Sequence record: CP113993.1
From: a plasmid
Strand: one strand, 5' to 3'
Length of the DNA stretch: 64,000 bases
Made by a program: the position numbers and the translations under genes. The notes beneath the pieces are model-generated. The model did no database searches. It worked only from the letters and a program-made list of their open reading frames with translations, and was not told the origin of the DNA. Positions 29,841-57,428 of the stretch are shown here, one piece after another; within the stretch, counting starts at the first letter, position 1, and the number at the start of each line of letters is the position of its first letter.

Positions 29841-29842
29841 GA

Positions 29843-30826: not shown

Positions 30827-30836
30827 ATTACTTATC

Positions 30837-31873: not shown

Positions 31874-31890
31874 ATGGCTTCCTTACCGGC

Positions 31891-34800: not shown

Positions 34801-35694
34801 CATCAGCACCGGAAGGCCTGTGGCTTCGTGCAGGGAGGCGGCAGTGGCATAGCCCTCGGCAAACAGCACCGGCTGGCCGTTGCGCGGTGTACCCAGCGCA
34901 AACCAGTTACCGGTTTTCTCGGAATCTTTCAGGATGCGGGCATCCTTCCCGCCGGTGACCGGAATGCGCTGGTAGGAGCGTATTGCGCCGTTACGGTTGC
35001 GGAAAGGAATAACGAGCTCATTTTTGTCGTTTATTCGCACCCCCGGCGCAGCCTGAATGCCTTTCCGGGTCAGGTATTCATGTGCCGTGGCCTGCGGCCA
35101 TTTGTTGACATAGCGGCGGGCATAAGCAGCCTGTCGGTTGTACTGTGCTTTCAGTTCCCGCTCAGCGTCCTCCCTGCGTTGCAGCGAATGCGCTTTCAGG
35201 TGAAGCCTTGCGCGGGGATCTGTCTGCTCTCCGCCGGAGAAGGTCCAGTTGACCGGCGAATCATCCGCGCTGCGATAATCCCTGTACCAGCCGGCAGGTC
35301 TGCCGTCCAGGAAGCCGCGATATGCGCCACTTTTTTGCCCGTTTTTGTCATCGGTGGTCGGAACCCGGTGGATTTTACCGTCCATGGCCGGCAGTTCTTT
35401 CAGAACCAGTCCGGCATTTTCCAGTACCTGGGCAAACTCGGTGACCGGATCACTGCCGTTCATGGAGACTTCCTGCGGTCGGGGCAGCCAGCGGTCCAGC
35501 ATGGACAGGTCCGCCCCCGGGCGGGCAAACCAGAGTTTGTGCTCTTTATCCCAGAGGACGGGCGTGTGCCCGTTCATCGGGGGATGTGCTTTTTTGAGAT
35601 CTTCTATTTCATCTGCAGGCACGGCAAGCCAGGTGCGGTAGCGGGATACAGACGGCATGAGTGCTTCTCCTGAAAAAAGACGGAAAAAAACCAC
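31891..35694 (-). CDS. sog: Sog DNA primase (SogL; an internal in-frame start is expected to give SogS), 1267 aa
   Basis: N-terminal zinc-binding/TOPRIM primase region (VLFAEGYATAASLHEATGLPVLMTVDAGN). A long P/E/T/S-rich linker follows, then a C-terminal domain. Size and position as in IncI1 sog. Confidence 0.85.
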   Translation of the reverse strand: MVFFRLFSGEALMPSVSRYRTWLAVPADEIEDLKKAHPPMNGHTPVLWDKEHKLWFARPGADLSMLDRWLPRPQEVSMNGSDPVTEFAQVLENAGLVLKELPAMDGKIHRVPTTDDKNGQKSGAYRGFLDGRPAGWYRDYRSADDSPVNWTFSGGEQTDPRARLHLKAHSLQRREDAERELKAQYNRQAAYARRYVNKWPQATAHEYLTRKGIQAAPGVRINDKNELVIPFRNRNGAIRSYQRIPVTGGKDARILKDSEKTGNWFALGTPRNGQPVLFAEGYATAASLHEATGLPVLMTVDAGNMIAVAEDARQKWKQSPFIFCADNDHARQVNKGIVSATKAAELTGGSVIFPAFTDAEKAQGLTDFNDLDASRGRAAFQHVINAQLEHIGVSTPNSNTPEIREALVIGNLVFTPVHTEEKTMTPTEYPETSPDTGHSHDQGPSLPSATQQEQPTASSSNIADETLSFTSHATENNGKDERHPDNVQAQTESSVVQDSPAESPASPESTTASAPDEPAHPAEPPEKVVSVATDKDWREFEAELSQPEKNELQQESGTSPEIPAPAAAPAAPEDSPSSETMNESAEPSPSPDAVKEEMTVMTEPDDKQSTGISPDTPREEAVSHVTEDIPLQPEPFLPESDGPEEYEDYSAYQELMNNENPEHLQENSDMPSQPDTGPVQADESELQATTATIEPAVRDEPTPQQPVQSTSPSDNTSSFLDKARGLFTRKKTDSQAHENSDPTPSAETTTTPPIPDSIVYAPERSDAPISLNMDEILKELDWEKRADRTVLYKLDGKPAFIDRVNRLEMVNGASNDDRSVLAALAVATKFYGGVIELTGSDAFKQKAMQLIIEHNIDVRMKLPDQRAELEKLRKEMAVSKDAVVTHQPTPELNRNTPEQPAVPDPVQEKEATQSPASPVAPEASTVSTASAPSPAEPGKTADVAPDEEPPGKLRPGESVTAVLHNFGRAEYAPGKGESFFVELKNRSGSKLYWGEQLESLVKNHQKGDVVTLTLQNREQFILPGEQKARFRNKWSMESVTNGISVSHDNPDKGQRIQAIPVETFMKVAAQISQGWPEEMKALRMPENVGSHLFIGEDRHPVSAPQNANQVTEITSAAPDKLTPVLGSVDKDTRELNLLLVQSADEHLQGVVRLNGTLYPALATPSADNSQLVINALTDKGLRFAGYGEAVNHDADSTNRPAPELMQFHLKTREEPLFAAVYTPEKQPDALYRNLGFEQSWQQWSNSQKPEDRQEKTLHQDLSHSPGR

Positions 35695-35747
35695 CGCCGG
35701 AAGCCGGGGGTGGCTGGGGGGATAGAAAATCGGGGGAGAAATGTTTG

Positions 35748-36299
35748 TCAGGGTCTCCAGTCTGTACCCTTATTCCAGCGATCCTGCCAGTGTTCAAGAT
35801 ATTGTGCGGCTACATCCGGCATATTCTTAAGCACAACGACATTCTCTGAATTCTTGCGTGCAGCAGCACGAGAGAAGTTATAGGAGCCGGTTTCAACCGT
35901 GTTTCCGTCAACAATGATGACTTTGTCGTGATGGATGGGGAAGGCATCTACAGTCCGGAGAGGAATGTCCAGCAGGTTGATATATTTCATCGCTTCCTGA
36001 CTTGCCCGGTTCGTATTCCCCTTGTCATCAACAACAATACGGACATCCACTCCGCGTTTTTTCGCTTTTGCCAGCGCATGCATTACATCCGGGTCGGTGA
36101 AGGAATATGCCATCATCCTGATGGAGCTTTCCGCACTGTTGATTGTGTCAAGCACCAGAGCGGATGCGCTTCCTTCAGGAGAAAAGCCGACCTTCACGGA
36201 TGGCGTGTCGATCATTGCAAACGATGGTGTCGTGAACAGTAACGGGCATGCCAGTAGCGATACCCGGAGCAGAGTAACGATAGTTTTTTTACCTGACAT
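35748..36299 (-). CDS. nuc: phospholipase-D-family periplasmic endonuclease Nuc, 183 aa from the internal ATG
   Basis: HxK(x4)D motif HHDKVIIVDGNTVETGSYNFS. Signal peptide MSGKKTIVTLLRVSLLACPLL. The six-frame ORF continues upstream, but the ATG at 36299 gives the secreted form. Confidence 0.75.
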   Translation of the reverse strand: MSGKKTIVTLLRVSLLACPLLFTTPSFAMIDTPSVKVGFSPEGSASALVLDTINSAESSIRMMAYSFTDPDVMHALAKAKKRGVDVRIVVDDKGNTNRASQEAMKYINLLDIPLRTVDAFPIHHDKVIIVDGNTVETGSYNFSRAAARKNSENVVVLKNMPDVAAQYLEHWQDRWNKGTDWRP

Positions 36300-36313
36300 A
36301 AAGACTCCAGAAT

Positions 36314-36604
36314 TTAATCGAGGCCAGTCCAGTCTCGTGGTGATTCCGTATGGTGGCGATACCACCATGGACGACCGGAGGCGATGGCCCCTCTCAGAAT
36401 GCTGAAAATGCGAGTACAGATCGTCCTGACAGTCCAGCCTGAACGGTCGAGAATAACGAAAAATAAAATGATGCCGGTGCAAATCCAGAAGGTTGTTTTG
36501 GAGGGAAAGGGGCATATAAACAGATAAATCATGGTGAACGGCAGAGGTACGCCCTGGATGTTGACTGGCGGTGTTGCATATCGCCAGAAACCTTCTCTTT
36601 TCAT
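36314..36604 (-). CDS. traK: small membrane protein TraK (IcmT-like), 96 aa
   Basis: Hydrophobic 96-aa ORF coupled to traJ. Confidence 0.45.
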   Translation of the reverse strand: MKREGFWRYATPPVNIQGVPLPFTMIYLFICPFPSKTTFWICTGIILFFVILDRSGWTVRTICTRIFSILRGAIASGRPWWYRHHTESPRDWTGLD

Positions 36605-37749
36605 GACCGTAACTCCCCTGGCGGGATAAAAAGAATCGCTTCTCTTCGGTCAACTTCATTCCGGATATACATTTCCAGAATCTGGTCCCGGATACGGCGC
36701 TTCTCCTGCCGGATTATGGCATCAATGTGATGCCCCCACTCTGCATGCGGCATTCCGGAAAGATTGTCGCGAAGCTCATCGTTAATGACGATATATTCCC
36801 GGACGGCTTTACGACCACCGTCATTTGTTCTGACCAGAACCTGAACCAGAATGAACTGCAACAGTGACAGGACAGCCCAGGCCATCGAATCCCTGATGAC
36901 AGGGGGAAACAGCCCAAGAAGACGTGCCAGCGTTTCACCAGGAGATTTCGTATGCATGGTGCTCAGGCAGTAATGTCCGGTGTTGCCTGCCTGTACCGCT
37001 GCGTCGGCGGTTTCGTTATCCCTGATCTCACCAACACCGATAATTTCGGGATTACGTCGTACAGCAGAACGCAGTCCGGCAGCAAAACTGACCACATCAC
37101 GCCCGATTTCTGCCTGATGCGGTGGGAGCAGATCGTTTTCATTTCCCAGGATATATTCCACCGGGTCTTCATATGTCACGATTTTGGCGTCGGGGAAATT
37201 GTCCATAATGTAACGGTACAGTGCTGAACACAGCGTTGATTTTCCTGACCCGGTTTCACCACATACAAATCCCAGACCGCTTTTGCAGACCATTGCTTCA
37301 AGCAGGTCTGGTTCAATGTTCATGGAGAGAATGTCCGGTATTTCTGTCGGGATGACACGCATGGTTATTGAGATTGCTTTCTCCTCCGCACCAGATGTGC
37401 CCTGAATGAGGTGAGAGCGTAACCGGATGCGTTCTCCGCGTTTAAGACCATAGCGCCCGGATGCATCCCCGTTAATCTGTATCGTCCTGTCAACCGGATT
37501 GCCTGCCAGAACGCGGGGAATGACTTCCCGACCGAACAGTTCATCAATCAGGGAGGACATGAGTGTGGTTGGTAACGTTGCACTGGAACAACGCACCCGT
37601 CGGCCAAAGCGACTGACAGATACAGGTGACCCGCCGGTCAGATCCACATCACTGACTTTATGTGCGGCACACCAGACAAAGAAATGCCGTAGTTCATCTG
37701 CAGTGAAACGCTGAAACGGAAAAAGACCAAACTCATCAGGAATATTCAT
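36601..37749 (-). CDS. traJ: T4SS ATPase TraJ (DotB / VirB11 / PilT-like), 382 aa
   Basis: Walker A GETGSGKST. A histidine box lies downstream. Confidence 0.85.
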   Translation of the reverse strand: MNIPDEFGLFPFQRFTADELRHFFVWCAAHKVSDVDLTGGSPVSVSRFGRRVRCSSATLPTTLMSSLIDELFGREVIPRVLAGNPVDRTIQINGDASGRYGLKRGERIRLRSHLIQGTSGAEEKAISITMRVIPTEIPDILSMNIEPDLLEAMVCKSGLGFVCGETGSGKSTLCSALYRYIMDNFPDAKIVTYEDPVEYILGNENDLLPPHQAEIGRDVVSFAAGLRSAVRRNPEIIGVGEIRDNETADAAVQAGNTGHYCLSTMHTKSPGETLARLLGLFPPVIRDSMAWAVLSLLQFILVQVLVRTNDGGRKAVREYIVINDELRDNLSGMPHAEWGHHIDAIIRQEKRRIRDQILEMYIRNEVDRREAILFIPPGELRS

Positions 37750-38564
37750 CGGGAGCCTCCTTCAGTGCCTATAAGCGGACGCCAGTGAGATTTCTGAAGA
37801 TTGAATTCCGCATGATTTTTAAGGCGACGAACACGATCTCCAGTGACCAGTTTTTTCCCGTCACCTGTAACGGTTTGCATTTGATCAGAAACATCCGGAC
37901 GGGTGATCATGCCCTGACGCCAGAGAAGTGAGTACAGCATCATGCCCCGGTAATCACGGGTGAGGGTTTTCTGGTTGGCTTCAAGCGTCAGGTCGGCGTT
38001 TTGTCTTCCTTCCTGCCATCCCTGCCGTAATGCGGTTTCCCACACTTTTCGTTGCACGCTGTCTTCTGGAACGACGCTGCCTTCTGTACCCGGAGTGGCT
38101 GTTGTTGAAAGCCCCCGGAGAAGCCAGTCACGCCAGCCCGGTGGATTGCTGACAAAGCGTTCAGGGCGAATGATGGTCCAGACCCGGGAAGAGGTCCGGA
38201 TTTGATCTGGCGTGATATGAGCTACGTCCTGTGCTTCATCAATAACCGGTGGTAGCCAGCCTTCCGGGCTAATCAGTGGCCGGAAATCGTATAAGGCATT
38301 AAGTGTGCTTTCCCGGGCGTTGAGTGCCTGAATCAGCTCCCATGAACGCTGAGCCTTGCCACCACGAAATCCAAGCGTTTTACCTGCGTCGGTCAGCATT
38401 TTCCAGCGGGTTTCTGACAGACTATCCGGCTTTTCACTTCGTGGTTTAAGCCATGCATTAATGTCAGGTGGTGGCGTATTGACACCACCTGGCGAGATGG
38501 TGGGGGAAGAAGAACAACCAGTAAGCAGTATTACTGGCAAAATGAGAGAGGTGAGTGCTTTCAT
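37746..38564 (-). CDS. traI: outer-membrane lipoprotein TraI (DotC-like), 272 aa
   Basis: Lipobox LLTGCSS. Confidence 0.65.
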   Translation of the reverse strand: MKALTSLILPVILLTGCSSSPTISPGGVNTPPPDINAWLKPRSEKPDSLSETRWKMLTDAGKTLGFRGGKAQRSWELIQALNARESTLNALYDFRPLISPEGWLPPVIDEAQDVAHITPDQIRTSSRVWTIIRPERFVSNPPGWRDWLLRGLSTTATPGTEGSVVPEDSVQRKVWETALRQGWQEGRQNADLTLEANQKTLTRDYRGMMLYSLLWRQGMITRPDVSDQMQTVTGDGKKLVTGDRVRRLKNHAEFNLQKSHWRPLIGTEGGSR

Positions 38565-39019
38565 TTTTTCCGGTTCTCCGGCTGCATGAAGCTGACCTGT
38601 AACAAGCCCGGATATTGATGGATTGTTGCTCTCCAGGCTGTCTGGGCTTCAATAAGTCTCAACGTATTGGAAAACGTCATATCCCGGACGTGAAGGTTGA
38701 CTGGTAACGGCAGGCGGACACCATTGTAGTTAAACTGCATCCCCCTGACTCTGGCCAGTTCGTTCAGTAATTCAATTGCATCACCTTCCCAGTCAAAGGA
38801 AAGGCGATCGCTGTTAGCTGTCAGAAGATGAGACCCCGTTGAAACCGGAAGTTGGCCGGAAAACACACCTTTGTCCCATAATGTGTACTGAGTGTGCCGG
38901 GTAACCGCCACATCAGAGGCAGCACCGTAGTTACGCGGAACAGGAGTATGCTGAGAAGGGGAGTTGCAGCCAGCCAGAAAAAGGGCGGCAAGACACCCCG
39001 CAGGTATAATACGGTTCAT
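38561..39019 (-). CDS. traH: lipoprotein TraH (DotD-like), 152 aa
   Basis: Lipobox FLAGCNS. Confidence 0.6.
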   Translation of the reverse strand: MNRIIPAGCLAALFLAGCNSPSQHTPVPRNYGAASDVAVTRHTQYTLWDKGVFSGQLPVSTGSHLLTANSDRLSFDWEGDAIELLNELARVRGMQFNYNGVRLPLPVNLHVRDMTFSNTLRLIEAQTAWRATIHQYPGLLQVSFMQPENRKK

Positions 39020-39227
39020 AATAATTCCTGAGCAGTTAAATCAGAATGGGATATACCGGTGCTCCGGTACAGACAGGATGATGTTTGTTTCCGGCTATAC
39101 TTGCGTTACCGGAAATAAATGCCAGTGTGGCCAGGTAAATAGCCTCATAGTTTACTGAAGGTGATTATTCCTGATACTGGCTGGTTGATGTGTCGTCAGA
39201 CATAAAACGAATATGAGCGTAATCTTT

Positions 39228-39370
39228 AACGCTCCGCGCCGAATCGATCCATGATGGATGACTCGACGATTTATGAATCGAACGTACCGGCGCTTGTCCC
39301 TGAAACAGTTCCCGGCCCTCGTCCGGATAACCTGCAATTCAGACAGGCACATGTGCCCGTACACTCTTGT
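39228..39370 (-). repeat. ~145-bp leader repeat, copy 1 (upstream of traH)
   Basis: Shares the core AACGCTCCGCGCCGAATCGATCCATGATGG and CTG.AGTTCTGACAGGCA with 56676..56815 and 57738..57885. In minus-strand sense it carries the 8-codon uORF MDRFGAER. Confidence 0.55.
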
Positions 39371-39413
39371 ATCTTACTGAGTATATCAGAATTTATGTAA
39401 ATTCAAATATCCT

Positions 39414-39998
39414 CTATGCCTCTTTGTTGTATTTTCCGTCAAGTATGAGCCGGGTACCATCGTAATGCATGATCAGGGCATCAAGGTACGCCGGTTTGAA
39501 TTTCTTGCCGAGCCTATCTCTGGCCAGAAATGATAAACAATGATTATGTGTCATTATTACTATGTTCCTTTTATGAGATTCTCTTGCGATTGATTCAAGC
39601 GTCTTATAAAGATCATTATTGCAGTCTGATAAACTGTCCATAACGACGGGTTCTTTACCGGAGAAGAATTTTGCAGTTTGTATGGTTCTTACCGCATTGC
39701 TGGAGTAAATATCATATTCACTGAAGATTGTTGCGAACTTAATACCTTCCTGCTGTGCTTTCTCTGTACCGGTAATAGTGATTCCGCTTTTATCCGAATA
39801 GCATGGCATATCTGAACGGTCGCAACGTTCTCCATGGCGGAAAAGGAAAATAACGGTGTTATCAGCATTAATTTCTTTTGCCTGTTCCAGGGTGATATCG
39901 GGAAGCGAGCTTTTTGCTTTTGTCACTGCCGCTACCAGGAAAACAGAAAATAAAAGAATGAATGCTGTTTTTGAATAAGAAGAACGTGGTTTCATCAT
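39414..39998 (-). CDS. traG: secreted histidine-phosphatase superfamily protein (RHG motif), 194 aa, at the traG position
   Basis: Signal peptide. FRHGER motif of the phosphoglycerate-mutase/acid-phosphatase branch. AT-rich relative to its neighbours. Confidence 0.55.
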   Translation of the reverse strand: MMKPRSSYSKTAFILLFSVFLVAAVTKAKSSLPDITLEQAKEINADNTVIFLFRHGERCDRSDMPCYSDKSGITITGTEKAQQEGIKFATIFSEYDIYSSNAVRTIQTAKFFSGKEPVVMDSLSDCNNDLYKTLESIARESHKRNIVIMTHNHCLSFLARDRLGKKFKPAYLDALIMHYDGTRLILDGKYNKEA

Positions 39999-40057
39999 GT
40001 TATTTAAACTGAATATAAAAATACCCCCGGGTTTAGTGCCGGGGGCGGGGACAGTAA

Positions 40058-41260
40058 TCAGAAAGTGAACTGAAGTTGTGCCATTGCACCGTAATCGTGG
40101 TCAGTTCCTACCAGGCCGGAAACATCGATATGTACGACGTCAAATGGAGAGATACCAACGCCAGCGGTGAAGGCGCTTCCGGAGTTTGATGCCATGTTCT
40201 GACGATAACCGGCACGCAATTGCGCCCATTTCCATGCGTTAAATTCAGCACCAACACTTGCAAACTGACGTTTGCTGTCAGAAGTGAAGCCACTGGCAGG
40301 AGTCAGATCAACGTCAAGAGCAGTGGTAAACAGGTCATTATGCCAGGATACACCGGCGGTTGCCTGTGGACGAACTTTGAAGGTTTCTTTAAAGCCATTG
40401 ACGACTTTAGTATCAATACTGCGTGGAATGATGTTCTGGGCAACAAGACCGACAGTCCAGTTGTCATTCAGGTCTGTATAAGCACCAATATCGGCGTTGA
40501 ATCCGTTTTTCGTGTTGTGGTACTTGTCACCGTCAAAATCGTCTTTGTCGTAATCACGAACCGTTACGTTGTAGTTAAACAGGTCCACACGCTGATATTT
40601 TGGTGTGACGCCAAGAGACCATTTTTGTCCGGCCGTTTCCAGTTCTTTGGCAAATGAAATTCCGACGTCGGTAATTACAGCTGCACGCCCGAATGCGCGT
40701 GAGGTCAGGGCATTCTTATCGACGTCGGTAATTGTTCCATTGGCAACTTTGTCCAGATAATCCAGGTCTGCATCGTTTACTTTTCCGTTTACGCTGACTG
40801 TTCCGTAAGACTTGACCATAAGGGCAAACGGCAGAGTGTCATTTGCCATGGCTGCTACAGCTGATGCACCTACCTGAGCATCTGCATTGATATTGCGGAA
40901 TTCCTGCAGACGATGTTTAAGATTTGCCGCTGCCTGTTGTACGCCATGCTGGTTATCTACAGCACTGTCAAACAAATCCCAGTCATCTTTAACATCATCA
41001 GCTTTATTTGATACATCATCAGGATCAGCAACTTGTGCCCCAACAGACGGCAGAAGAAGGCTGAAATCATCATTGCTGTTGTGCTTTGTCAGTAAAGCCG
41101 GGTTTGCCAGAGGTGCCACACCATAATGGGAAGATGCTACCCCGGTGCCACCCATTGCATCGTTACGCGCTTCAAAATATGACGTCGCTGCTGCAGCGTT
41201 AAAGGAAAATAATACAGCAGATGCAATGATGGTGCGGGTAATATGATTTTTCTTCATCAT
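40058..41260 (-). CDS. traF: outer-membrane beta-barrel protein (FadL/OmpP1-like fold, C-terminal Phe), 400 aa, at the traF position
   Basis: Signal peptide. Alternating beta-strand pattern. The terminal ...AQLQFTF is an OMP signature. Confidence 0.55.
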   Translation of the reverse strand: MMKKNHITRTIIASAVLFSFNAAAATSYFEARNDAMGGTGVASSHYGVAPLANPALLTKHNSNDDFSLLLPSVGAQVADPDDVSNKADDVKDDWDLFDSAVDNQHGVQQAAANLKHRLQEFRNINADAQVGASAVAAMANDTLPFALMVKSYGTVSVNGKVNDADLDYLDKVANGTITDVDKNALTSRAFGRAAVITDVGISFAKELETAGQKWSLGVTPKYQRVDLFNYNVTVRDYDKDDFDGDKYHNTKNGFNADIGAYTDLNDNWTVGLVAQNIIPRSIDTKVVNGFKETFKVRPQATAGVSWHNDLFTTALDVDLTPASGFTSDSKRQFASVGAEFNAWKWAQLRAGYRQNMASNSGSAFTAGVGISPFDVVHIDVSGLVGTDHDYGAMAQLQFTF

Positions 41261-41345
41261 TTAATTTCCTGTTTATCAGAATTTAGACAAAACAACGCTA
41301 TGACACGGATGTGCCGTAAATTTTTACTTTGGTACTATCTGGTAT

Positions 41346-42170
41346 TTACCAGGGTAATAAAGACGTATTAAATAAGCTAACAGGTAGTATTTGCCCTGTA
41401 ATAAGGTTTCCGGCAAGGCCAGGTCTCAACGTAACGCGTCGCAAAGACATTGTTGTATTCTGCCTGGTTGTATATTCAGTTAACCATTTTCTTTTTTCAT
41501 CGTTCAGAAGTGTTGGTGATAATGATAGTGCCGGATATATTACAGAGCCATTTATTTCTTTTTCCTGTCTCAATATTACCCCGCAATATTCTCTTTTCGT
41601 GTTTCCTGCGAAGGGGAAACTATGCCAGAAAATAACTTCAGTGTTGCTGCTATCATTAATAAGCATTCTGAAATTATGAGCAGTATCTGGCCATTCACCG
41701 GACAACGCTATCGGATAGTTTTCATGGCCATTCAGCCAGTCCGGATTGAGATTAAAACATTCAGCAAGATGTTCGAGAGCGTCAACTGAAAGATAGTCTG
41801 CAAGTCTGGCCGGGTCCTGTATTACCGTGGAGCGGATATTCCATGGCGACAGCAATGTTGCCAGTAATGGCGCATTTATATCATGCGACAGCATGATGTA
41901 TTCAATTCTGCTTATTATGTTTCCTGTGGTGTTATCCGCAGGCATAAACATATTATGAAGAGCATCCTCAAGCAGGATTCGGGTTAAATCAGCGGTGGAT
42001 ATGGCTAATTGTTCGCTCATTATCCCCAGAACTTCTCTTACCCCTTGTGGGTAACGGACCTGCAGTGGTGTCGGGTTTATCTGACGACCGTTGATGAGTT
42101 TTTCGCCGATTGCTTTTTTGTCCAGCGAGAGCATCATTCGGGCCGCAATACCGGTCGTATTCAGTCTCAT
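41346..42170 (-). CDS. traE: transfer-region protein TraE, 274 aa
   Basis: ORF at the position following the pil operon. Confidence 0.45.
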   Translation of the reverse strand: MRLNTTGIAARMMLSLDKKAIGEKLINGRQINPTPLQVRYPQGVREVLGIMSEQLAISTADLTRILLEDALHNMFMPADNTTGNIISRIEYIMLSHDINAPLLATLLSPWNIRSTVIQDPARLADYLSVDALEHLAECFNLNPDWLNGHENYPIALSGEWPDTAHNFRMLINDSSNTEVIFWHSFPFAGNTKREYCGVILRQEKEINGSVIYPALSLSPTLLNDEKRKWLTEYTTRQNTTMSLRRVTLRPGLAGNLITGQILPVSLFNTSLLPW

Positions 42171-42370
42171 TGTTCCTCCGACTGAAAAAGTCTTTTCAGC
42201 TCATGTGGTTATTGTATCTTCGGTGTTTTTTCTGGTGAAACGAATAATTTCGATCATGCAGATCGAATGTGTTTGGCGAGTTGTTGCAACTCGCCTTTCT
42301 GTATGTGTTTTGAATGATGCTTACAACGAGGTGCTGCCCGGGTTCAGAGGGCAAATCATAATGTAGTCAG

Positions 42371-42503
42371 GGGCGTCGACCGCGATATCAATGCGGCACT
42401 CAACATCCGGCAAAAAGGAATACTGGAACTAAAGGCGGCGGGACTCGTCGTCTCTGCCTATGGAGGCCAGCGTAAATCCGTCGCACAGACGGTTGCGGCC
42501 TGA
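42371..42503 (+). pseudogene. tnpB: 3' remnant of an IS200/IS605-family tnpB (last ~43 codons only)
   Basis: Frame encodes GVDRDINAALNIRQKGILELKAAGLVVSAYGGQRKSVAQTVAA*, the characteristic TnpB C-terminus. There is no upstream body. Confidence 0.5.
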
Positions 42504-42558
42504 GAAGTGGGAAGCTCGCCCGACAGGGCGGAGAGCAGTCACTATTTGGATATCAAAC

Positions 42559-43863
42559 TTAATTGAGCGTTACACACGACGCAATACAACCTGTCTTATG
42601 CTCGTATTTGTACCATTTACGTGAACCTGCTGGGCTCTCAACTACCTGGCAGTAGTGGGCATCCTCTGCGTTGCCCATTCTGGCAATGGCACAGAAGTCG
42701 AATTGCCCCAGATAACCTGTGTTGGAAAGCTGAGTAACTTTGAGTTTTCCACCTATTGTCCTCCACGTACCGGATTGGCACGAAAGTATTGCCCCTGTAT
42801 TATCGCGGCCTACAAGGCCGTTAGGCGAACATGATGCGCCAGCAACGGCAGTTCTTTCCAGTTGTAAGTATTCACCAGTATAAAGGCGACCATCAGCACG
42901 AACAGTACCGCCTTTCACCTGACCGCCGGTATAGATGCCCTTGTTGTTTACACTTCGAACCCATGATCCGTCGGACATATAAAATCCGCCACCGTGAGTT
43001 TCATTGAGCCAGCCTTTGCTGTTACGAGTAATTAACCAACCATTATTACTTCTGATATCACCGCCAGCGGTGACATTTACGTCAAAGTTTCCGCTATTGC
43101 CTTTTACCTGACCGCTGAAAGTGCCATTTACACCATTCACATTGCCGCTGAAATTACCAGTCTGGGCATTTACTGCCCCAACGTTATTCAGGTTATTTGA
43201 TCCCATATCAATGGCCGTGTGCATTTTGTTTAAGTCAGGGCGACCATTGACCTGGAATCTGTAAAGACGATCAGTGTCCTCTGCTGCACCACTAAGTTCA
43301 TCTGTCGATAACAGTACGGCAATATGCCCGTTGCCGCTTTTGGCACCATAATTACTTAAAGCTACTGACCAGGAACGTAATGCACCTGTGGCTGTTTTGC
43401 CGTCCTGGATATATCCACCAAGACCAGTGGTAATATCCTTAGCCATCTGGATAAGTGCTTTCACTGGATAAGGGGTGCCACCACTGGATACAACCATTGC
43501 CTGTAGTAATTCCGGGTTTTGGGTGTTTCGAACTACATATGCCTGTAACCGCTGCCCCTCGCTGTTTGTCTCAGTAAAGCCGCTGGACAAAAAGCCGGTA
43601 TTTTTCAGCATGGTTGTCGTGATAACGGCAGGGGTTGTTGTGGTACTACTGGCCTGGAGAGTTGTGTAGTTTTTCCCTATATAAGAGCGGGCTGCACTGG
43701 CCCAGTTGCTGACAAGACGAGCTTCAGCCTGCCAACCTTTGGTTTTTAAATAGTCCTGCCATATGCCTGCACCCCAGGCAACTATGATCATAACAATCAA
43801 TAAAGCCGCGCCAATTTCCAGCGATGCCCAGCCTCGGTCATATTTTTTCATCAGATTACCCAT
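42559..43863 (-). CDS. pilV: thin-pilus tip adhesin / minor pilin PilV, 434 aa, with a fixed C-terminal segment
   Basis: Prepilin-like N-terminus [23 protein letters not shown]. Contains the shufflon 19-bp repeat near the 3' end. Confidence 0.8.
42763..42781 (-). repeat. single shufflon 19-bp repeat GTGCCAATCCGGTACGTGG (Rci recombination site) inside pilV
   Basis: Exact match to the IncI1 shufflon repeat consensus as I remember it. It encodes CQSGTW at the junction between the constant and variable parts of PilV. No second copy or rci gene is present in the window. Confidence 0.6.
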
Positions 43864-44534
43864 AGTGGTTGATAAAGATTATCCAGTAGCAAAAGGACAT
43901 GGCCAAGACACAGCCATGGACCCAGTGGGCCTTCTTTATGTCCTTTTATGCACCATGTTGAATGCCATAAGACAAATCCTCCTGCGCCCAGCAACACACT
44001 CCATATGGCGTTATATAGCCCTGACCATGCGGTAATACCTGCAATAAGCCACAGGTCTCCTGTGCCAATATTAAGACGATGGCGGTTAACCAGTTTATGC
44101 AGACAGAATAAGACAATTGCGGCAGAGACAATTTCTGTTGCACGGAGCCACCATATATCAGTTGTGATTTGTGATAATATTCCAGCGATTAAAAAACGCC
44201 TGGTGAATGTACCAGGTAAGAGGCCTGTTAGTGCATCCGTTACTGCCATTTGCAGCATGAACGAAAGAATAAGAACAGCATGAATACGGTAGAGAAGTTG
44301 GGATGGCGATAAAATAATTAATGCCACAGCTATACTATATAGCCATATTCCTGACAGAACTGCAGTGTGTGTCTTATACCAGAGATGTTCTGTATCAGAT
44401 AAAAAATAACGAACTCTGAATAACAGAGTTCGTCCAATAATGGAAAATATGAACATCAATGGGAGGATATAAACAGGGGAGAGACTTATGCCTACGATTG
44501 TCTGCATTGTCTGCCTCCCTGCCCGGGAAGGCAT
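43851..44534 (-). CDS. pilU: prepilin peptidase PilU (A24 family), 227 aa
   Basis: Polytopic membrane protein with conserved Asp-containing loops. Position. Confidence 0.75.
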
Positions 44535-45052
44535 ATCCCTTTCATGTCACGATAAATTCTCCATACTTTATTAGCATATTGCTCTCTTGTTTCATGTCTG
44601 TCCTTACGGAAGCCGGCATTGTATGATCCAAGGCAATTCCAGCTGACGCCACATATCTGAAAATGTCTTGCCAGTATCCAGCTTCCTATATGGATATTAA
44701 GACATGGTTTGGTAATTAAATCCTCAGACTTTTTGATTACGCCCATCTTTATAAGCTTTGGAATATGGGTTGAGTTTATTTGCATCAACCCATAATCCGT
44801 ACTACTGGCTTTGCCTGTTTTTCTGTCCTTATTTATGTTAATTGCGCCCGGCTTCAATGAAGATTCCCCGGCAGAAATGGCCTTCAACAATAATGGTTCA
44901 ATTTGATAGCGTGCGCCGGCGGCGGCAAAGCAATTGTCCCACTTGTTAGTCCAGATTTGTTTGGGGGCGATGTATGAAGCTCGGGCGGGATAAATAAGAG
45001 AACAAAGCAGGATTAATGAAATAAGTCTGAGGGGCACTTTACCCCCGGACAT
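44492..45052 (-). CDS. pilT: lytic transglycosylase PilT (SLT domain), 186 aa
   Basis: Signal peptide. SLT motifs ...ESS... and YGLMQIN. Confidence 0.75.
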   Translation of the reverse strand: MSGGKVPLRLISLILLCSLIYPARASYIAPKQIWTNKWDNCFAAAGARYQIEPLLLKAISAGESSLKPGAININKDRKTGKASSTDYGLMQINSTHIPKLIKMGVIKKSEDLITKPCLNIHIGSWILARHFQICGVSWNCLGSYNAGFRKDRHETREQYANKVWRIYRDMKGICLPGQGGRQCRQS

Positions 45053-45061
45053 TAAAACTCC

Positions 45062-45676
45062 TTAGCCATTGATGGTGAAGATTAGTTTGTTTGTACCGGT
45101 GCTGCCATTATCAGCTGTGCATTGCGCACTGGCTTCTTCAGTAGTGACTTTTCCATCATTGTGAGTCGTACTGTTCAGGGTAATACCGTTAGTTAAACCA
45201 GTACGACTGATTTGTGTGGCAATCTGGATACAGGCATCCTGTGGGACTTTTTCATAGGTGACGGTAAAACCATTGTTGAAACCTGATGTTGAAGCCGGAG
45301 CAACAGTTACGGCACCGCCCCATGAGTTATAGAGCGTTGCTGTACCTGATGATGGAGTACCACGCACTGTCATAGTCTTGGGTACGCCACCCATCTGAAT
45401 GAGAGCACCCGTCATTTTGGCTCCACTGGTAAACGTATATCCATCGCTACCTTTTAGCAGCCCCTGAGTACTTGTGATGATTGTCTGTATGTTCGAACTT
45501 TCATTTGCCACACCGGTTCGTGAACGCAACATATACAATCCACCAAAAACAAGGGCAAGTACGATAATTACAACAAGTGCTATTGCACCCTGTTCCATAA
45601 TACCCCAGCCTTTGTCATGAGACGTTTCTTTCTCATTTTTCTTCAGAGCGTTAACATCAATATTTTGGATTAACAT
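45062..45676 (-). CDS. pilS: type IVb major prepilin PilS, 204 aa
   Basis: Long leader followed by a hydrophobic helix IALVVIIVLALVFGGLY. Confidence 0.75.
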   Translation of the reverse strand: MLIQNIDVNALKKNEKETSHDKGWGIMEQGAIALVVIIVLALVFGGLYMLRSRTGVANESSNIQTIITSTQGLLKGSDGYTFTSGAKMTGALIQMGGVPKTMTVRGTPSSGTATLYNSWGGAVTVAPASTSGFNNGFTVTYEKVPQDACIQIATQISRTGLTNGITLNSTTHNDGKVTTEEASAQCTADNGSTGTNKLIFTING

Positions 45677-45692
45677 AAATACCTCGTTTTAT

Positions 45693-46778
45693 TTAAAGAT
45701 TACCCATACTGTTGTCGCCAATAGACTGAATGTCTACAACGGCCATGACCAGTAACAGGAGTGACATGACAAGAAATATCAGCATAATTAAACGCACAAC
45801 AGCTGCTCGTTTTTTTACTCGCTCCAGCGTTTGTACAAGCCACCGTTGGCCATAATTGCCGATTAGCTCCGTTGCGCCATCTCCCTGTAATAAAGACAGG
45901 AAGTTGGCTGCTTCCCTGGATGGGAACTGATAACCGCACTGACGCAAAGCCAGCCCAAGGTGATCCCCCTGGCGTACGCGGTAAATAATGCTGTCAAGGC
46001 GTGTGCTTAACCATGGTGATGCAAAGTCCTGAAGAACGTTCAGTGAGTTGAGCGTTGTCATTTTGGCTTTCAGAAGTGCAGCCATATTCAGGAGGAATGC
46101 TGCCCCCTGTATATCCTTATAAATACTCCATGGCATTATATTGTCAGCCAAAGAGCGGCTTTTCCAGTTTTTCAGAGACCATGATATTACACCTGTGACC
46201 ACTGCAAAAAGAACGGCACATATAGCGCCGTAATTATCGACAAACAAAGATAATCCATAGAGAAAACCAAGAGCACCACTCCATGAATCAGGGGAGCTTA
46301 TTTTGCTCAGTACAGGTATTAGCTCTGTATTAAGAACATATAATGTCCCCGTCATCATGATTAACAACCCCACCGGGTAAATAGCCATTTGCCATATGGC
46401 CTGATGGAGTTGCTTTTTGGCATCTGTAAGTGTGGTGGCAAATTGTAATGCATCCACAATGGAACCACTTCTTATTCCGGCACTGATTACTGCAGCCTCT
46501 TCCTGGGGAACCCATAAACCAAGAGTATATTCCAGAGAGTTTTCGCCACTGTTTTCACGAAGAGACTCAATACAGTCTGTGGCCAGTTCAGCAAAGGGAT
46601 GCCATTTTCGTCCAAAGTCTGTCCAGGCATCCCGCATCTGTTCCAGTGCGGTCTTTAATGGCTGTTTATTTTCCAGCAGAAAACGCAGAGCTTCGTAAAA
46701 CTGCACCCTGTAGGGGGCGCTGAACGTTTTTCTGACAATGAAACGTCTCAGCCGTTGACTGAAATTCATTTCACGCAT
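45693..46778 (-). CDS. pilR: pilus assembly inner-membrane platform protein PilR (GspF/PilC-like), 361 aa
   Basis: GspF-type topology and size. Confidence 0.8.
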   Translation of the reverse strand: MREMNFSQRLRRFIVRKTFSAPYRVQFYEALRFLLENKQPLKTALEQMRDAWTDFGRKWHPFAELATDCIESLRENSGENSLEYTLGLWVPQEEAAVISAGIRSGSIVDALQFATTLTDAKKQLHQAIWQMAIYPVGLLIMMTGTLYVLNTELIPVLSKISSPDSWSGALGFLYGLSLFVDNYGAICAVLFAVVTGVISWSLKNWKSRSLADNIMPWSIYKDIQGAAFLLNMAALLKAKMTTLNSLNVLQDFASPWLSTRLDSIIYRVRQGDHLGLALRQCGYQFPSREAANFLSLLQGDGATELIGNYGQRWLVQTLERVKKRAAVVRLIMLIFLVMSLLLLVMAVVDIQSIGDNSMGNL

Positions 46779-46790
46779 GTTGTTCTCCTG

Positions 46791-48344
46791 TTAGGCATCA
46801 TCGATGCTGAGGCGTTCGTCTTCGTCCAGAGGGATGATTCTGTCGGCTTCAAGAGGGTCCACCAGGCCTTCATTGATACGGCGAAGCAGATGCTCCACAC
46901 GACTGATGCCATGCATGTTTTCAAGCCAGTATTTACGTGCTGCAACTTTGCCGCGTGTTTTCAGAATCTGAAATAAGCGATTATCAGGTTCTATCACTTC
47001 AGCAATTACGGTCCTGCCGGTGAGGCCTTTACCTATTTCACCGCGCTTTCTGCCGTTAATAATTACGTCGTGATTACAGTCGGAGCATCCGTGAGGATTT
47101 CGGAACCAGATATTATCTGTACTGCAGAGTGAATCTTTATTGCAGTGCCGCTCAAGGTAAGCGCGGTCGTCTTCGCTAAGTTCAGGTACTCGCTTTTCCC
47201 ATGGAATACGGCAGGAGGGACACAGAGTTGGTACAAGACGCTGGCTGATCATCCCAATCAGTAATTGCGCATCGCAAATAAGATCGGCATTCATACCCAT
47301 CGTAATCATCCGCTCCGGTATACCCAGAGCTGAGTTTGTATGTAATGTCGTCAGAACGATGTGACCGGTCTGAGCCGCGTAGGTTGTTGACATCATCGAG
47401 ACAAGATCACGCATTTCCCCTTCCATGATGGCATCGGGGTCAAGTCGCATTGCCGATGAAATAGCACGACTCCATGCCAGTTTGACGGCCTCTTCGTCGG
47501 ATTTGTCACAGATAATCGGGGTTTGTGTTGCCCCCAGAATCTGTCCTTCCAGCGGATCTTCGATCGTCAGCAGGTGTCGCCCCTGATTATCGTCAAGATA
47601 TACACGGCAGGCACTGCGTAACGTTGTTGATTTACCTGAACCTGTTGGACCAGACAGAACTATTTTCCCTTCCGGGCGGCGCAGCATGACGTTCAGCAAC
47701 CGGATTTGCTCCGGTATAAAGCCCAGTTGCTTAAACGTGGGAACTTTGTCTCCGTCATCGGGTATCAGGCGCATAACTGCAATCAGACCATCTCCCGTAG
47801 GTCTGTGACTGTATCGTGCACCAAATATTCCTATTTTTCGCATTAATTGTGGGGACAGGCGCGCATCCTGTTCCCTTTGAGGGAAGAAACTGGTTTCAGT
47901 CACATCAGCCATTGACAGAATGGCTGTTGCGCAAAGTGAATAACCCAACGCAGGTTGATCTTCATCTACAGTTTGCAGTTCACCGAATATTCTCATGCGA
48001 ACTTTGAAAATAGACTCTGAAATTAAAAAATGAATATCTGAAGCACCAAGTTTTCTGGCCGTTTCAAAATAGGAGAGAACTTTCTTCTCACTTTCACTGA
48101 CATCTGCAAGATCTTTCAGATGAATAATCCGTTCTTTCGGACCTTTATTTTCATCATCCTGACCGGCTTCCTGTAACTCAGACAGCGAGACTACTTTTGG
48201 GATGATGTCAGGGTATAAGTTTAGCAGTTCCTGGAGATTACTCTGTACGTCAGGTCTTGTTCGCTGATTTGTTTCGATGAGAATTTCATGGGTGTCTCCC
48301 CGGGATATAAAAAGGAGAGCATCCTTCAAATTATATTTGTCCAT
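46791..48344 (-). CDS. pilQ: pilus assembly ATPase PilQ (GspE/PilB-like), 517 aa
   Basis: Walker A GPTGSGKSTTL. Tetracysteine motif near the C-terminus. Confidence 0.85.
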   Translation of the reverse strand: MDKYNLKDALLFISRGDTHEILIETNQRTRPDVQSNLQELLNLYPDIIPKVVSLSELQEAGQDDENKGPKERIIHLKDLADVSESEKKVLSYFETARKLGASDIHFLISESIFKVRMRIFGELQTVDEDQPALGYSLCATAILSMADVTETSFFPQREQDARLSPQLMRKIGIFGARYSHRPTGDGLIAVMRLIPDDGDKVPTFKQLGFIPEQIRLLNVMLRRPEGKIVLSGPTGSGKSTTLRSACRVYLDDNQGRHLLTIEDPLEGQILGATQTPIICDKSDEEAVKLAWSRAISSAMRLDPDAIMEGEMRDLVSMMSTTYAAQTGHIVLTTLHTNSALGIPERMITMGMNADLICDAQLLIGMISQRLVPTLCPSCRIPWEKRVPELSEDDRAYLERHCNKDSLCSTDNIWFRNPHGCSDCNHDVIINGRKRGEIGKGLTGRTVIAEVIEPDNRLFQILKTRGKVAARKYWLENMHGISRVEHLLRRINEGLVDPLEADRIIPLDEDERLSIDDA

Positions 48345-48354
48345 ATCACATCAC

Positions 48355-48807
48355 TCAGAAAGTAAGGGTGGTGCCATCACTTAACGTGACGCCAGACAAT
48401 GAGATCGACTTCACCGTGACGGATGTACCCGGAAGCTGGCTACCAGTGGTGACGCTTGTCTGACGTCCATCAGCCATGCGAAGAACGGCATGAAGACGTT
48501 TATCTTTGCCGTTTATTTCCATAATAACGGGCAATTCCTTTCTGTTTTTAGATGTCGGCTGCTCTGAAACTGATGGCAAAGAGGCAGTCATACCAGAGAA
48601 ACCTGAAACAGTTTCAGATGACAGATTAACATCTGATTCTTCGAGTTGTTTCTGTAGCTGTGCGCCCTGAACTTTTGCCTGTAAAAGAATATTCCGGTTT
48701 TGTTGTGCTTCAAGTTCTCCTATTGTGACAAGAGGTTGTGTTGTTGCAAATGAAAAACCAGAGAAGAAAAATATGGATGGAATAATGAGTAATTTACCTG
48801 GACGCAT
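48355..48807 (-). CDS. pilP: pilus assembly protein PilP, 150 aa
   Basis: Signal peptide. Coupled to pilO and pilQ. Confidence 0.6.
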   Translation of the reverse strand: MRPGKLLIIPSIFFFSGFSFATTQPLVTIGELEAQQNRNILLQAKVQGAQLQKQLEESDVNLSSETVSGFSGMTASLPSVSEQPTSKNRKELPVIMEINGKDKRLHAVLRMADGRQTSVTTGSQLPGTSVTVKSISLSGVTLSDGTTLTF

Positions 48808-50089
48808 AAATATGACCTTCTGAGGAATAACTGAAAGTACCGCCGTTTAATTCAAAATGGATATTGCTCAGACGAACGCCGGTATCCTGAAATAAAGGGA
48901 ACAACTCATCAGGATTTACAGGCGTTGATAAACTGAACTGATATTCTTTCCATTTCTGAACAGGGGCTGGTTCACCATCGTTACCTGGTAATGGTTCCGG
49001 TATGGCTATTTCATTAATGGCCGGCGTTAACTGTTTTTTCTGAAACCACGTGAACACCCGCATCAGTTGTTCTGAGGGGGCAGGGACTGCCTCATCCCTG
49101 CGGGGCAGGGAAGGCAGTGGCCGGGTTACAGAAGCCAGGCGTGCACCATCTTTAAGGTTAAAGTCAGGAATAACATTAAAGATTTCTTTGCTTCTTGCCA
49201 GAAAGCCTTCAATAGTTCCTCCTGGCTGTCGTTCGTAAATCAGTGTGAATGTCTCGGGAGTACATGTTCCACCGGTAAGTTTCCAGCCTTCTAGCGCGAC
49301 CGGTGATGGTTTTCGAAGGTCCGCGCAGGCTTTCAGAAAATCACTGATTACAGGTTGTGACGCCCATGGATGCGGGAGCTCCGGTGGTGGTTCGGGCTTT
49401 TTAAACTGTAATCTTGCCCGTGCAGCTATCTCCTCGGCGGTCGGTCCGACATCCGGCTCTGGCTGAGTCATCCAGAATACTGTGCCTGCGCCGGCTGCTA
49501 CTAAAAACAGTACGGCAGGCAGTGTGAATTTGCTGCGATTGCCGACAGTAAGTTTGCAACGGCGGAGGTCTGCTGATGATAACCGGGTAATAATACTTTC
49601 CCAGTTATCAGGATGTTCCAGAGACGATACAACCTGCCATTTTTCGGGGGGCTCTTCGTTCATCGCCAGAAAAAGGCTGACCTTTTGGGCAACATCGGCA
49701 TCATTTCCTGATAAGTCAGCCATAACGGCAGGCTGGCCATTAATGGAAGCAAGGAATAAGAGCTCCTTATCGCTGTACCGGAAGACACCGTATCCATTTC
49801 TGACCCATGAGCAGAAAGCCAGTGCCAGGGAAAAATAATGATTGCGTTCTGGCCTGGTCAGTATTCCTGTGCCGGTAAGGCGGCTGATCTTTCCACGGGA
49901 ATTTCTGCTGCCTACAGTCACTTTCAGGGAGGTAAGCCGTCTGGGTTTTACATGAGACTTGTGTTTATGATGTGAGGGGACGCGCTGTTTTTTTACGACA
50001 GGAGTCCATTTAAGACAGGCAGCCCACACGCGATGATTTACTTTAGGATCTGCGAGAAGCACTACCGGGTTGATATCTTCATCAGCCAT
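48794..50089 (-). CDS. pilO: pilus assembly protein PilO, 431 aa
   Basis: Operon context. One TM segment. Confidence 0.6.
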   Translation of the reverse strand: MADEDINPVVLLADPKVNHRVWAACLKWTPVVKKQRVPSHHKHKSHVKPRRLTSLKVTVGSRNSRGKISRLTGTGILTRPERNHYFSLALAFCSWVRNGYGVFRYSDKELLFLASINGQPAVMADLSGNDADVAQKVSLFLAMNEEPPEKWQVVSSLEHPDNWESIITRLSSADLRRCKLTVGNRSKFTLPAVLFLVAAGAGTVFWMTQPEPDVGPTAEEIAARARLQFKKPEPPPELPHPWASQPVISDFLKACADLRKPSPVALEGWKLTGGTCTPETFTLIYERQPGGTIEGFLARSKEIFNVIPDFNLKDGARLASVTRPLPSLPRRDEAVPAPSEQLMRVFTWFQKKQLTPAINEIAIPEPLPGNDGEPAPVQKWKEYQFSLSTPVNPDELFPLFQDTGVRLSNIHFELNGGTFSYSSEGHIYASR

Positions 50090-51764
50090 TATTGCCTCCT
50101 GACGGGAAAGTCGGGGTAATGATGATCACAAGCGTGCTGCGTTCATTTTTCCCGGTTTGTGAACCACCAAATAATGGATTTGCTGGCGTAAATGTACCGG
50201 CTTTACTTGTCGTCGTATTGTTCTGATCGAAACCAGTAACGACAAGTGATTGCCCTTCTTTCAGATTGACCTTCTGGCTCAGTGAACGCAGTTTGGTATA
50301 TGGCATTTCGATGTAACTGTTTCCGTCTTTTGACGTAAAGCTACGGATAGTTGGGGGATCAGACAGATTAAAGTTCATCTGCAACTGGAGATTGCCTGTT
50401 TTCTGAATTAAAGGCAGCAGGGTCATATTGAATCCAGTGGTGATCATGCCCGGTGTTAATGTTGTTGTTGCTCCTACATCCGTAGTCGTAGTTGTTGCTG
50501 ACTGGGCGACGTAAACTGTCTGATCTGCCATCTGGATAGGTACCGGCGTCAGGTTTGTGACAGTGCTTTCTTGTGAAGTTACAACGCTGACATCGCCTTG
50601 TTCACTCAGTGCTTTAATCAGAAGGCTGGAACCGCTGAATTTGGCGGCATTCCCTGTTGCCGTATCCAGAATTGATACGCCTGCAGATGTAGCGCCTGTA
50701 AAATCTCCGCTTGCATTGTTCAACGTTGCTCCGGCGGAATGTAGCGATTTATAAACAAGGTTCCAGTCCAGACCGAACTGTTCGTTTCTGGTATTGCTGA
50801 CGCTCAGAACCTGTACGTTCAGGGCTACCTGGCGGTTCATAATACTGTTTTGTTCGTCTACATATCGTGCGACGGCTTCCTGGACAGCTGGAGTATCAGT
50901 GACTGTCAGCGTTGAGCTCGATGCAGATAACCAGTAACGGCCTTTTTCTGGTGTCAGCATTGCTTCAATAGTTTTCCGGATATCTTCATACAGATCGTAT
51001 TCCTGACCAACGGTTGTGCTCTGAGAGGACGTTGCATCACCGGATGCTGAGTTATCCTGGCCTCCTGTTGCCCCCATTGTGCTTGTTGAGCCAGAGCTGA
51101 CACTGGAACTGCTGCTGGTTTTGGTGTTCAGCATATGAAGTGGATACGTTCTGGTTTCAGTCAGATAGAATACAATCCGACCATTATCCATGCGCCAGTA
51201 CAGACCACTCCGGCTGGCCATCAGATCCAGAAGACCATTGATATCTCCCTGCCACATGAGGTTATTCAGCGTTAATGGCTGAGTGGAGGTAGTCATTGTT
51301 GTGCTGCCCAGGCTGCTTAACGGTAGACGTCCATTTTCATCTGGTGCTGGTAGTGTTCCTGTCATCTGGCGGGTAGCGCCTCCTTCAAGAGTTGAATTGG
51401 CTGCGTCAGGCGTGATGATCACAGGGATGCCGCATACGGCAGTAATACGTTGCCCCAGTTCCTGCAGAGTGATCTCTCCTTTTCTTGCCTGCGTGATGTA
51501 GCAGGCTGGAGCTGTTTGTTTTTTCTCTCTTGATACCTGAGCGACCGGAACAGGGTTTATCCATTGATTATCGAGCCAGGTAAGAGCCTGCGATTTACGG
51601 GCCGAAAGGGCTGATACCTTTTCCCGTGCATGTGCTGAGTCTTCCTGTGCTTTTTTCTGCATTTTGTTGATTTCGCTGAAAGTACATCCGGAGATGGAAA
51701 GAGCGACGGCGATCATGCAGGGGAGCACCGCCAGCTTCATTGAACGCTGGTGTGATTTTTTCAT
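50082..51764 (-). CDS. pilN: secretin lipoprotein PilN, 560 aa
   Basis: Lipobox ISGCTF. Gly/Thr/Ser-rich secretin-like C-terminal domain. Confidence 0.8.
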   Translation of the reverse strand: MKKSHQRSMKLAVLPCMIAVALSISGCTFSEINKMQKKAQEDSAHAREKVSALSARKSQALTWLDNQWINPVPVAQVSREKKQTAPACYITQARKGEITLQELGQRITAVCGIPVIITPDAANSTLEGGATRQMTGTLPAPDENGRLPLSSLGSTTMTTSTQPLTLNNLMWQGDINGLLDLMASRSGLYWRMDNGRIVFYLTETRTYPLHMLNTKTSSSSSVSSGSTSTMGATGGQDNSASGDATSSQSTTVGQEYDLYEDIRKTIEAMLTPEKGRYWLSASSSTLTVTDTPAVQEAVARYVDEQNSIMNRQVALNVQVLSVSNTRNEQFGLDWNLVYKSLHSAGATLNNASGDFTGATSAGVSILDTATGNAAKFSGSSLLIKALSEQGDVSVVTSQESTVTNLTPVPIQMADQTVYVAQSATTTTTDVGATTTLTPGMITTGFNMTLLPLIQKTGNLQLQMNFNLSDPPTIRSFTSKDGNSYIEMPYTKLRSLSQKVNLKEGQSLVVTGFDQNNTTTSKAGTFTPANPLFGGSQTGKNERSTLVIIITPTFPSGGNNG

Positions 51765-51777
51765 GAATATATCCAGA

Positions 51778-52215
51778 TTAGTTAACGTAGACGACAGAAC
51801 CAGCAGTAATGCCTGCCGGGGGTGTCAGACCGGTTGCAGTTCCTGATAGCCAGGTGAGTTGCCCGTTTTGGAAGATCCCTATTAGTGCAGAACCACGACT
51901 TTTTGAACGCAAAGTTTCAACAAGTCCTGGTTGTTCAGGCATCCATACCCACAGACGCCCCTGTTGTAACTGATGTTTAATTCGGGAGTCCGGAGTGACA
52001 GGGAGAGCCAGTTTATCTGAGGAAATTACTCCGTCCTGCTGGCCTGATACGTATCTGATATCATTGATTCTATTAGCAATCATTAGTATCTGACTTGCCC
52101 ATACAGACGCACTTGCATATTGCTGGGCGTTTGTGGTTTCAGACATCTTCTGATTCTGGTAGCTACCAGTGATAATCAGAATGGTCAGGCCGACGGCCAT
52201 GACCAGCCATCCCAT
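51778..52215 (-). CDS. pilM: pilus assembly protein PilM, 145 aa
   Basis: N-terminal TM segment. Coupled to pilL. Confidence 0.55.
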   Translation of the reverse strand: MGWLVMAVGLTILIITGSYQNQKMSETTNAQQYASASVWASQILMIANRINDIRYVSGQQDGVISSDKLALPVTPDSRIKHQLQQGRLWVWMPEQPGLVETLRSKSRGSALIGIFQNGQLTWLSGTATGLTPPAGITAGSVVYVN

Positions 52216-54204: not shown

Positions 54205-54253
54205 GTTGGCTGAGGCAGGCGACTAAAATAACAGACTAAGGAGGATTAACTGT

Positions 54254-54514: not shown

Positions 54515-54517
54515 TGA

Positions 54518-57399: not shown

Positions 57400-57428
57400 A
57401 GCAAAGGTCTCCGATGACAACTAAAAAC

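Follow-up and report, generated by a model that had tools for sequence, protein, structure and literature searches.

The PilV adhesin at the tip of the thin pilus is diversified in plasmids such as R64 by the shufflon, which in R64 yields seven C-termini. A functional shufflon comprises at least two inverted sfx sites around an invertible segment, a gene for the tyrosine recombinase Rci, alternative 3′ segments of pilV, and a constant N-terminal region of PilV that ends at the sfx-encoded CQSGTW. Studies of R64 and TP114 established that PilV variants bind different lipopolysaccharide (LPS) structures, that loss of rci locks a single variant, and that the thin pilus plays a part in matings in broth and in the gut and not on solid surfaces (PMC5430464, PMC9045228, PMC8213034); in the first two settings, it is the locked variant that determines the recipient specificity (PMC9045228). 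Absence of the system has also been recorded, as the 2011 genome paper of E. coli W reports no rci and no repeat-flanked shufflon regions in its plasmid pRK1 (PMC3032704).

The locus described here lies in a 64-kb stretch of plasmid DNA (hereafter the window) that represents only part of its replicon. It resembles R64 and ColIb-P9 in the pilV constant region, the sfx sequence, the A′ coding segment, the rci-traE spacer and the gene order pilU-pilV-(shufflon)-(rci)-traE. However, where R64 has seven sfx sites the window has one; segments B, C and D are missing, the A open reading frame (ORF) is clipped, 56 bp of rci are left and no inversion is possible. The 388-bp spacer between pilV and traE was mapped base by base against intact plasmids and a full copy of the insertion sequence (IS) whose tail it contains, giving the following features:

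41346..42170, minus strand: traE, 274 aa, intact, the first gene downstream of the deletion (ORF; TraE in near-identical records; 98.6% identical to the copy in plasmid p95)
42171..42320, minus strand: normal rci-traE intergenic region, collinear with R64 and p95
42321..42376, minus strand: rci remnant, the last 56 bp (~18 C-terminal codons and the stop codon); blastn alignments to R64 and p95 stop at 42376
42377..42542, plus strand: IS200/IS605-family tail, 166 bp, 98.2% identical to a full copy (locus L003, 4001..4167)
42543..42762, minus strand: surviving part of segment A, 98.4% identical to segment A of R64 (locus L007, 6571..6814)
42763..42781, minus strand: the remaining 19-bp sfx recombination site, of the ...ACGTGG variant found on both sides of segment A in R64
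42559..43863, minus strand: pilV, thin-pilus tip adhesin, A′ form (Pfam Shufflon_N, E = 1.8e-186, residues 37-365; annotated in near-identical records)

The sfx site, GTGCCAATCCGGTACGTGG, is the sole match in the 64-kb window at up to three mismatches, where 0.01 would be expected by chance; relaxing the scan to five mismatches adds two matches, both with the full five. In the pilV frame it encodes CQSGTW. When rci and the complete shufflon of R64 (record NC_005014) served as queries, three parts of the window were matched and no others: 42171..42376, 42539..42782 and the pilV constant region. Among the segments the A′ part of segment A alone was matched, and neither another shufflon segment nor a complete rci was found with these queries in the 64 kb. 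In a tblastn search with R64 Rci, residues 366-384 of 384 matched, with nothing else in the window below E = 1; judged against the intact gene of p95 (locus L005, 1597..2751), ~1.1 kb of the 5′ part of rci is deleted. The initial annotation, made from the sequence alone, had described one CQSGTW-encoding repeat on the minus strand at this position, with no further repeats and no alternative PilV segments, and both the mismatch scan and the R64 shufflon query agree with it. It had also called rci absent, which holds for the complete gene, but the last 56 bp survive. Of the components of a functional shufflon, the window thus retains the PilV constant region ending at CQSGTW; it has a single sfx site, no recombinase gene beyond the C-terminal remnant and no alternative 3′ segments. 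With no Rci and a single sfx site, inversion is impossible.

On the traE side, a promoter scan placed a promoter-like site, a consensus match only, at 42239->42211 and directed at traE, and a GC-rich hairpin followed by a T-run, likewise a pattern match only, lies on the plus strand at 42275..42295 in the rci-traE spacer. From these motifs, the local signals of traE appear to have been spared by the deletion.

The adhesin gene itself is intact, as are all the pil ORFs in the window from pilV through pilK, which have the expected sizes. PilV is 434 aa long in the longest ORF and 430 aa from the start chosen by PGAP (43851), and exactly the same protein is present in the public collection. After CQSGTW, 67 codons follow, ending ...CIASCVTLN. 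The surviving part of segment A holds these 67 codons, which form the A′ C-terminus, with their stop codon at 42559..42561, together with a 16-bp spacer (42543..42558) of segment A DNA from beyond that stop codon. The initial annotation had left it to be determined which segment was kept, and the answer is A′: the C-terminus is the shorter ORF of the segment between two ...ACGTGG repeats and differs from R64 A′ at 2 of 73 residues, and Swiss-Prot lists a 430-aa PilV ending in this way as SHU2_ECOLX, ‘Shufflon protein A′’, and the 474-aa form as SHU1_ECOLX, ‘Shufflon protein A’. Public labels for the variants of segment A conflict. The 430-aa form is called ‘PilVA’ in LC567060.1 (5809..7101), a label that we rejected in favour of A′ on the basis of the two Swiss-Prot entries and the re-annotation of pESBL.

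The 166-bp IS tail comprises codons 351-391 of tnpB with their stop codon (to 42503), the right-end hairpin and the terminus ...GCAGTCAC. Its plus-strand frame, ending ...DRDINAALNIRQKGILELKAAGLVVSAYGGQRKSVAQTVAA*, is 98% identical at the DNA level to the 3′ end of an annotated gene for a 391-aa TnpB, and its right joint coincides with the IS terminus. The tnpB identity proposed in the initial annotation therefore stands. That annotation had delimited 43 TnpB codons at 42371..42503, however, and here a correction is needed: homology begins at 42377, leaving 41 codons plus a stop; codons one and two of the 43 are the rci remnant read on its opposite strand. In the near-identical E. coli plasmid NZ_CP141737.1, PGAP calls exactly these 41 codons and stop codon a TnpB pseudogene, such that the remnants at this locus are already flagged in public records. 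The IS piece also extends past the tnpB stop codon to the authentic right end at 42542. As a Pfam search with the 43-aa tail alone gave no match, identification as TnpB rests on DNA identity to the full copy.

The parent element is 1336 bp long and contains only tnpB. Three features that mark the IS200/IS605 family are found in it: the 391-aa product of the full copy in L003 has the HTH_OrfB_IS605, OrfB_IS605 and Cas12f1-like TNB domains of Pfam, insertion is 3′ of a fixed tetranucleotide, TCAG, without terminal inverted repeats and with flanks free of target duplication, and subterminal hairpins lie at both ends. A fourth, the Y1 HUH transposase gene tnpA, was not found in the 1336 bp; having tnpB only, the element is non-autonomous within the family and would need TnpA in trans. 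An element ~79% identical to it carries the annotation ISEc46 and lies next to a tnpA gene. The window tail, too, shares ~79% identity with ISEc46, against 98% with the tnpB-only element, and the right-end terminus is common to them; relative to its parent, the window keeps the last 166 of 1336 bp, without a left end or a functional tnpB.

ColIb-P9 and many further IncI1 plasmids carry copies identical to the parent element in their leading region, in the psiA-ardA gap. In the window, the same gap holds a 209-aa ORF (159..788) with TCAG on both sides (201..204 and 839..842), and in ColIb-P9-type plasmids the 1336-bp element replaces exactly that ~638-bp stretch. Since ~638 bp are exchanged for the IS, the ColIb-P9-type copy is not a simple insertion relative to the window.

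Comparison of these copies with the shufflon locus identified the insertion point. The right end ...GCAGTCAC is identical in five contexts, the window and four others. At the left end, the element is preceded by AAATCAG in L003 and by TAATCAG in a second locus (L012), a preference for TCAG that is drawn from these two tnpB-only copies. In intact plasmids the empty site in the shufflon reads TTTTCAG|TATTTGG; where these have TTTTCAG|TATTTGGATATC, the window has ...GCAGTCAC|TATTTGGATATC at the same point. Both IS ends carry subterminal hairpins, GC-rich stem-loops on CTCGCCC...GGGCG, for which z-scores in DNA folds are modest (about -2), and the right-end hairpin of the window has two base pairs fewer than those of intact copies. 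Given the same right end elsewhere, and TCAG at both the empty site and the two left ends, the sequences identify the right joint as a genuine transposition joint at the typical target of the element.

The base-by-base alignments to R64, p95 and the full IS copy place the left joint at 42376/42377 and the right joint at 42542/42543. The right joint, where the IS inserted, is 16 bp beyond the A′ stop codon; the convergent A ORF of the plus strand has thereby lost its final 6 codons. The left joint lies inside both tnpB and rci and at no IS terminus; no microhomology, and no TCAG, was found exactly at this rci-tnpB joint. A before-and-after comparison is provided by the US pESI-like plasmid pFSIS1502169, which matches the window at 99.5% and 99.1% identity to either side of the locus. 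Its rci is intact, it contains four sfx sites and two segments, and it is not locked. In the window, ~2.0 kb of the pFSIS1502169 sequence is replaced by the 166-bp IS tail. This comparison supports the view of the initial annotation that the multiple-inversion system was deleted, leaving PilV fixed.

The order of events that we infer from this anatomy is that an IS inserted in segment A and that a deletion then removed rci and the other segments, leaving a dead shufflon in which pilV is permanently fused to A′, a history that we consider very likely. A 1336-bp tnpB-only relative of ISEc46 would have inserted 3′ of the TCAG inside segment A. At a time when A′ was joined to pilV, an illegitimate deletion would then have run from tnpB codon 350/351 to ~18 codons before the end of rci, taking the left part of the IS, all other segments and sfx sites, and ~95% of rci. 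A sister allele, typified by pB2C_83, shares with the window the joint between the IS right end and segment A at the same base, the single sfx site and the fixed A′ end, but keeps 304 bp of the IS and 93 bp of rci, as compared with 166 and 56 bp, such that its internal joint differs. The same IS-A′ joint with longer remnants points to an ancestor with the whole IS at this site. A chimeric query of the IS and segment A, at a coverage of at least 80%, found no undeleted intermediate with a complete IS beside segment A in PLSDB.

Other origins of the locus were weighed against this history. Shufflons are a documented assembly problem (Brouwer et al., as cited in PMC5430464), and a collapsed shufflon might be a stitching error in a heterogeneous region. 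However, the gap holds an IS tail joined to a truncated rci, which the collapse of repeats cannot create; the same joint recurs across E. coli, E. fergusonii and Salmonella, in no fewer than 52 complete plasmids that were sequenced independently, and it lies inside an uninterrupted alignment to pRK1, which was sequenced in 2011. Because the joints hold non-shufflon DNA and recur in many independent assemblies, an artefact is effectively excluded. It is also very improbable that Rci deleted the DNA between direct sfx repeats and that the IS fragment is unrelated. The number of segments does vary naturally, from four in R64 to two in pFSIS1502169, which shows that segments are lost, and the array may have shrunk beforehand, but the endpoints of this deletion lie in rci and tnpB, neither of them at sfx, and segment A runs past the A′ stop codon to the IS end with no cut at a repeat. 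Moreover, direct sfx repeats are described as unable to recombine because of the asymmetry of the site (Gyohda 2006, as cited in PMC5430464).

If the machinery of the IS catalysed the deletion, by aberrant TnpA excision or by TnpB cutting, the event would be truly IS-mediated, as the initial annotation had suggested. The IS was on site, two different deletions begin inside it, and TCAG occurs at 42367..42370, 6 bp from the rci-side joint. Yet the joint is 6 bp off that tetranucleotide and not at it, the element has no tnpA of its own, and the endpoint on the IS side falls within tnpB, at neither the left nor the right end; TnpB would cut the flank beside the right end, which is intact. Catalysis by the IS is thus unlikely. 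What stands of the earlier suggestion is a genuine IS insertion at TCAG; with neither IS terminus at the deletion joint, the element marks what happened and is not proven to have driven the deletion. A further reading concerns the tail itself. In IS200/IS605 elements the 3′ end of tnpB and the right end encode an omega-RNA, for which the adjoining flank serves as guide. The 166-bp tail could accordingly be an orphan guide RNA, with an omega-RNA scaffold and a guide from the pilV flank, directing TnpB supplied in trans to unoccupied segment A sites of rival IncI1 plasmids. The part of the IS that was kept is exactly the part that encodes omega-RNA, the target TCAG+TATTTGGATATC is present in intact shufflons, and identical TnpB genes are carried in the early-entering leading region of many IncI1 plasmids. 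Against such a role, the promoter scan found no plus-strand promoter-like site upstream and a terminator-like hairpin just before the tail; the tail folds no better than shuffled sequence (z = -1.2), and no Rfam match was found across 41800..43000 at E <= 1. The right-end hairpin is two base pairs short, as expected for decay, and the sister allele retains a different tail length. We find a guide RNA scarcely credible, and return to insertion followed by illegitimate deletion as the preferred history of the locus.

The resulting allele is widespread. At least 52 PLSDB records contain the window-type joint, as an identical 100 bp in a single aligned piece; their hosts are E. coli, E. fergusonii and Salmonella, and their sources humans, livestock, pets and wastewater. 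Among them are pSE11-1 and four 250-280-kb megaplasmids of Salmonella. About 1,400 PLSDB records match either half of the joint query, mostly through normal rci-traE sequence. The sister joint of the pB2C_83 type adds 30 records, many of them plasmids of enterotoxigenic E. coli (ETEC) and Shigella sonnei, bringing the two alleles together to about 80-90 sequenced plasmids. pRK1 is 99.4% identical to the window over 41000..44600, in one uninterrupted 3.6-kb alignment that includes the joint, and like about 50 other IncI1-type plasmids, pSE11-1 and pSZL30.1 for instance, it shows the identical joint and no difference at the locus; the background differs, being an 80-105-kb IncI1 plasmid in the pRK1 group and a pESI-like Salmonella megaplasmid for the window. 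The allele is far older than the present replicon, and the window most likely acquired its copy by inheritance of the IncI1 module or by recombination, formation in place being less likely. The constant region of pilV in the pB2C_83 type is ~93% identical to that of the window, and the presence of the two alleles on such different backgrounds may reflect one insertion spread by recombination or repeated insertion at the same TCAG. Our literature search found no publication describing the IS-tail joint itself. The feature as such is an ordinary, widespread deletion variant of a well-known system, and is already recorded. Its practical value is modest, and it opens no new question on shufflons or TnpB; the joints at 42376/42377 and 42542/42543 do offer a simple PCR or in silico marker of locked plasmids.

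As in TP114 Δrci and fixed-shufflon derivatives of R64 (PMC9045228), loss of the recombinase locks one pilV variant in the window. Those laboratory constructs keep their silent segments, whereas here the segments are physically lost, in a natural and widespread state. By analogy with them, we infer that every thin pilus would carry PilV-A′ only and that recipient preference would be fixed in liquid and gut matings; mating on surfaces should be unaffected. Carriers of the allele, some pESI-like multidrug-resistance megaplasmids of Salmonella among them, have no means of varying the thin-pilus adhesin, and their spread in liquid and in the gut should depend on recipients that display whatever A′ binds. 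The papers covered here list ligands for A, B′, C and C′ and none for A′. Whether the locking of A′ is an adaptive specialisation, in which the adhesin suited to the usual recipients is always on display, or neutral decay, is a further point, and we think the former doubtful. Were it true, the beneficiaries would be the carriers among 80-105-kb plasmids of E. coli, E. fergusonii and Salmonella, among ETEC and Shigella plasmids and among pESI-like megaplasmids, and the existence of two deletion alleles would mean that, once the IS had inserted, loss of rci was selected repeatedly.

The locus also bears on labelling, as the gene is named ‘shufflon system ... PilV’ in a lineage without a working shufflon, which the present analysis corrects. 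This automatic product name is given even where the shufflon is non-working. A 2026 pangenome paper on pESI counts ‘the shufflon system’ as core (PMC13361800), a listing that is probably due to the automatic name of PilV. In pESI, pilV is reported to be transcribed and to be under regulation by TraB and FNR (PMC5013300).

The background of the window is a pESI-like resistance megaplasmid, as opposed to a plain IncI1 plasmid. It is near-identical to pSZL30.1, a Salmonella plasmid of 273 kb whose tet(A), dfrA14, class 2 integron and yersiniabactin genes, along with its size, mark it as pESI-like. The two are 100% identical over 1..26445 and 99.99% identical over 26435..63408 of the window, with one extra IS3-family element in pSZL30.1. 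No rci and no shufflon were found in the 150 kb of pSZL30.1 examined around the locus. Just past traA, at 60515..63408, the window carries a gene for an EamA-family transporter, tet(A) and tetR, and these genes place it in a pESI-like resistance megaplasmid. The similarity ends at 63408, where pSZL30.1 carries IS26. Its extra IS3-family element, of ~1.3 kb, lies in the tra region, in the gap between traU and traS at ~26435..26445, a site that is uninterrupted in the window. Over 38318..49623, the identity of the window to R64 shifts at the deletion, from 99.3% on the tra side (to 42376) to 93.6% on the pil side (from 42758), a change that is consistent with the recombination point near rci proposed previously (PMC8004404).
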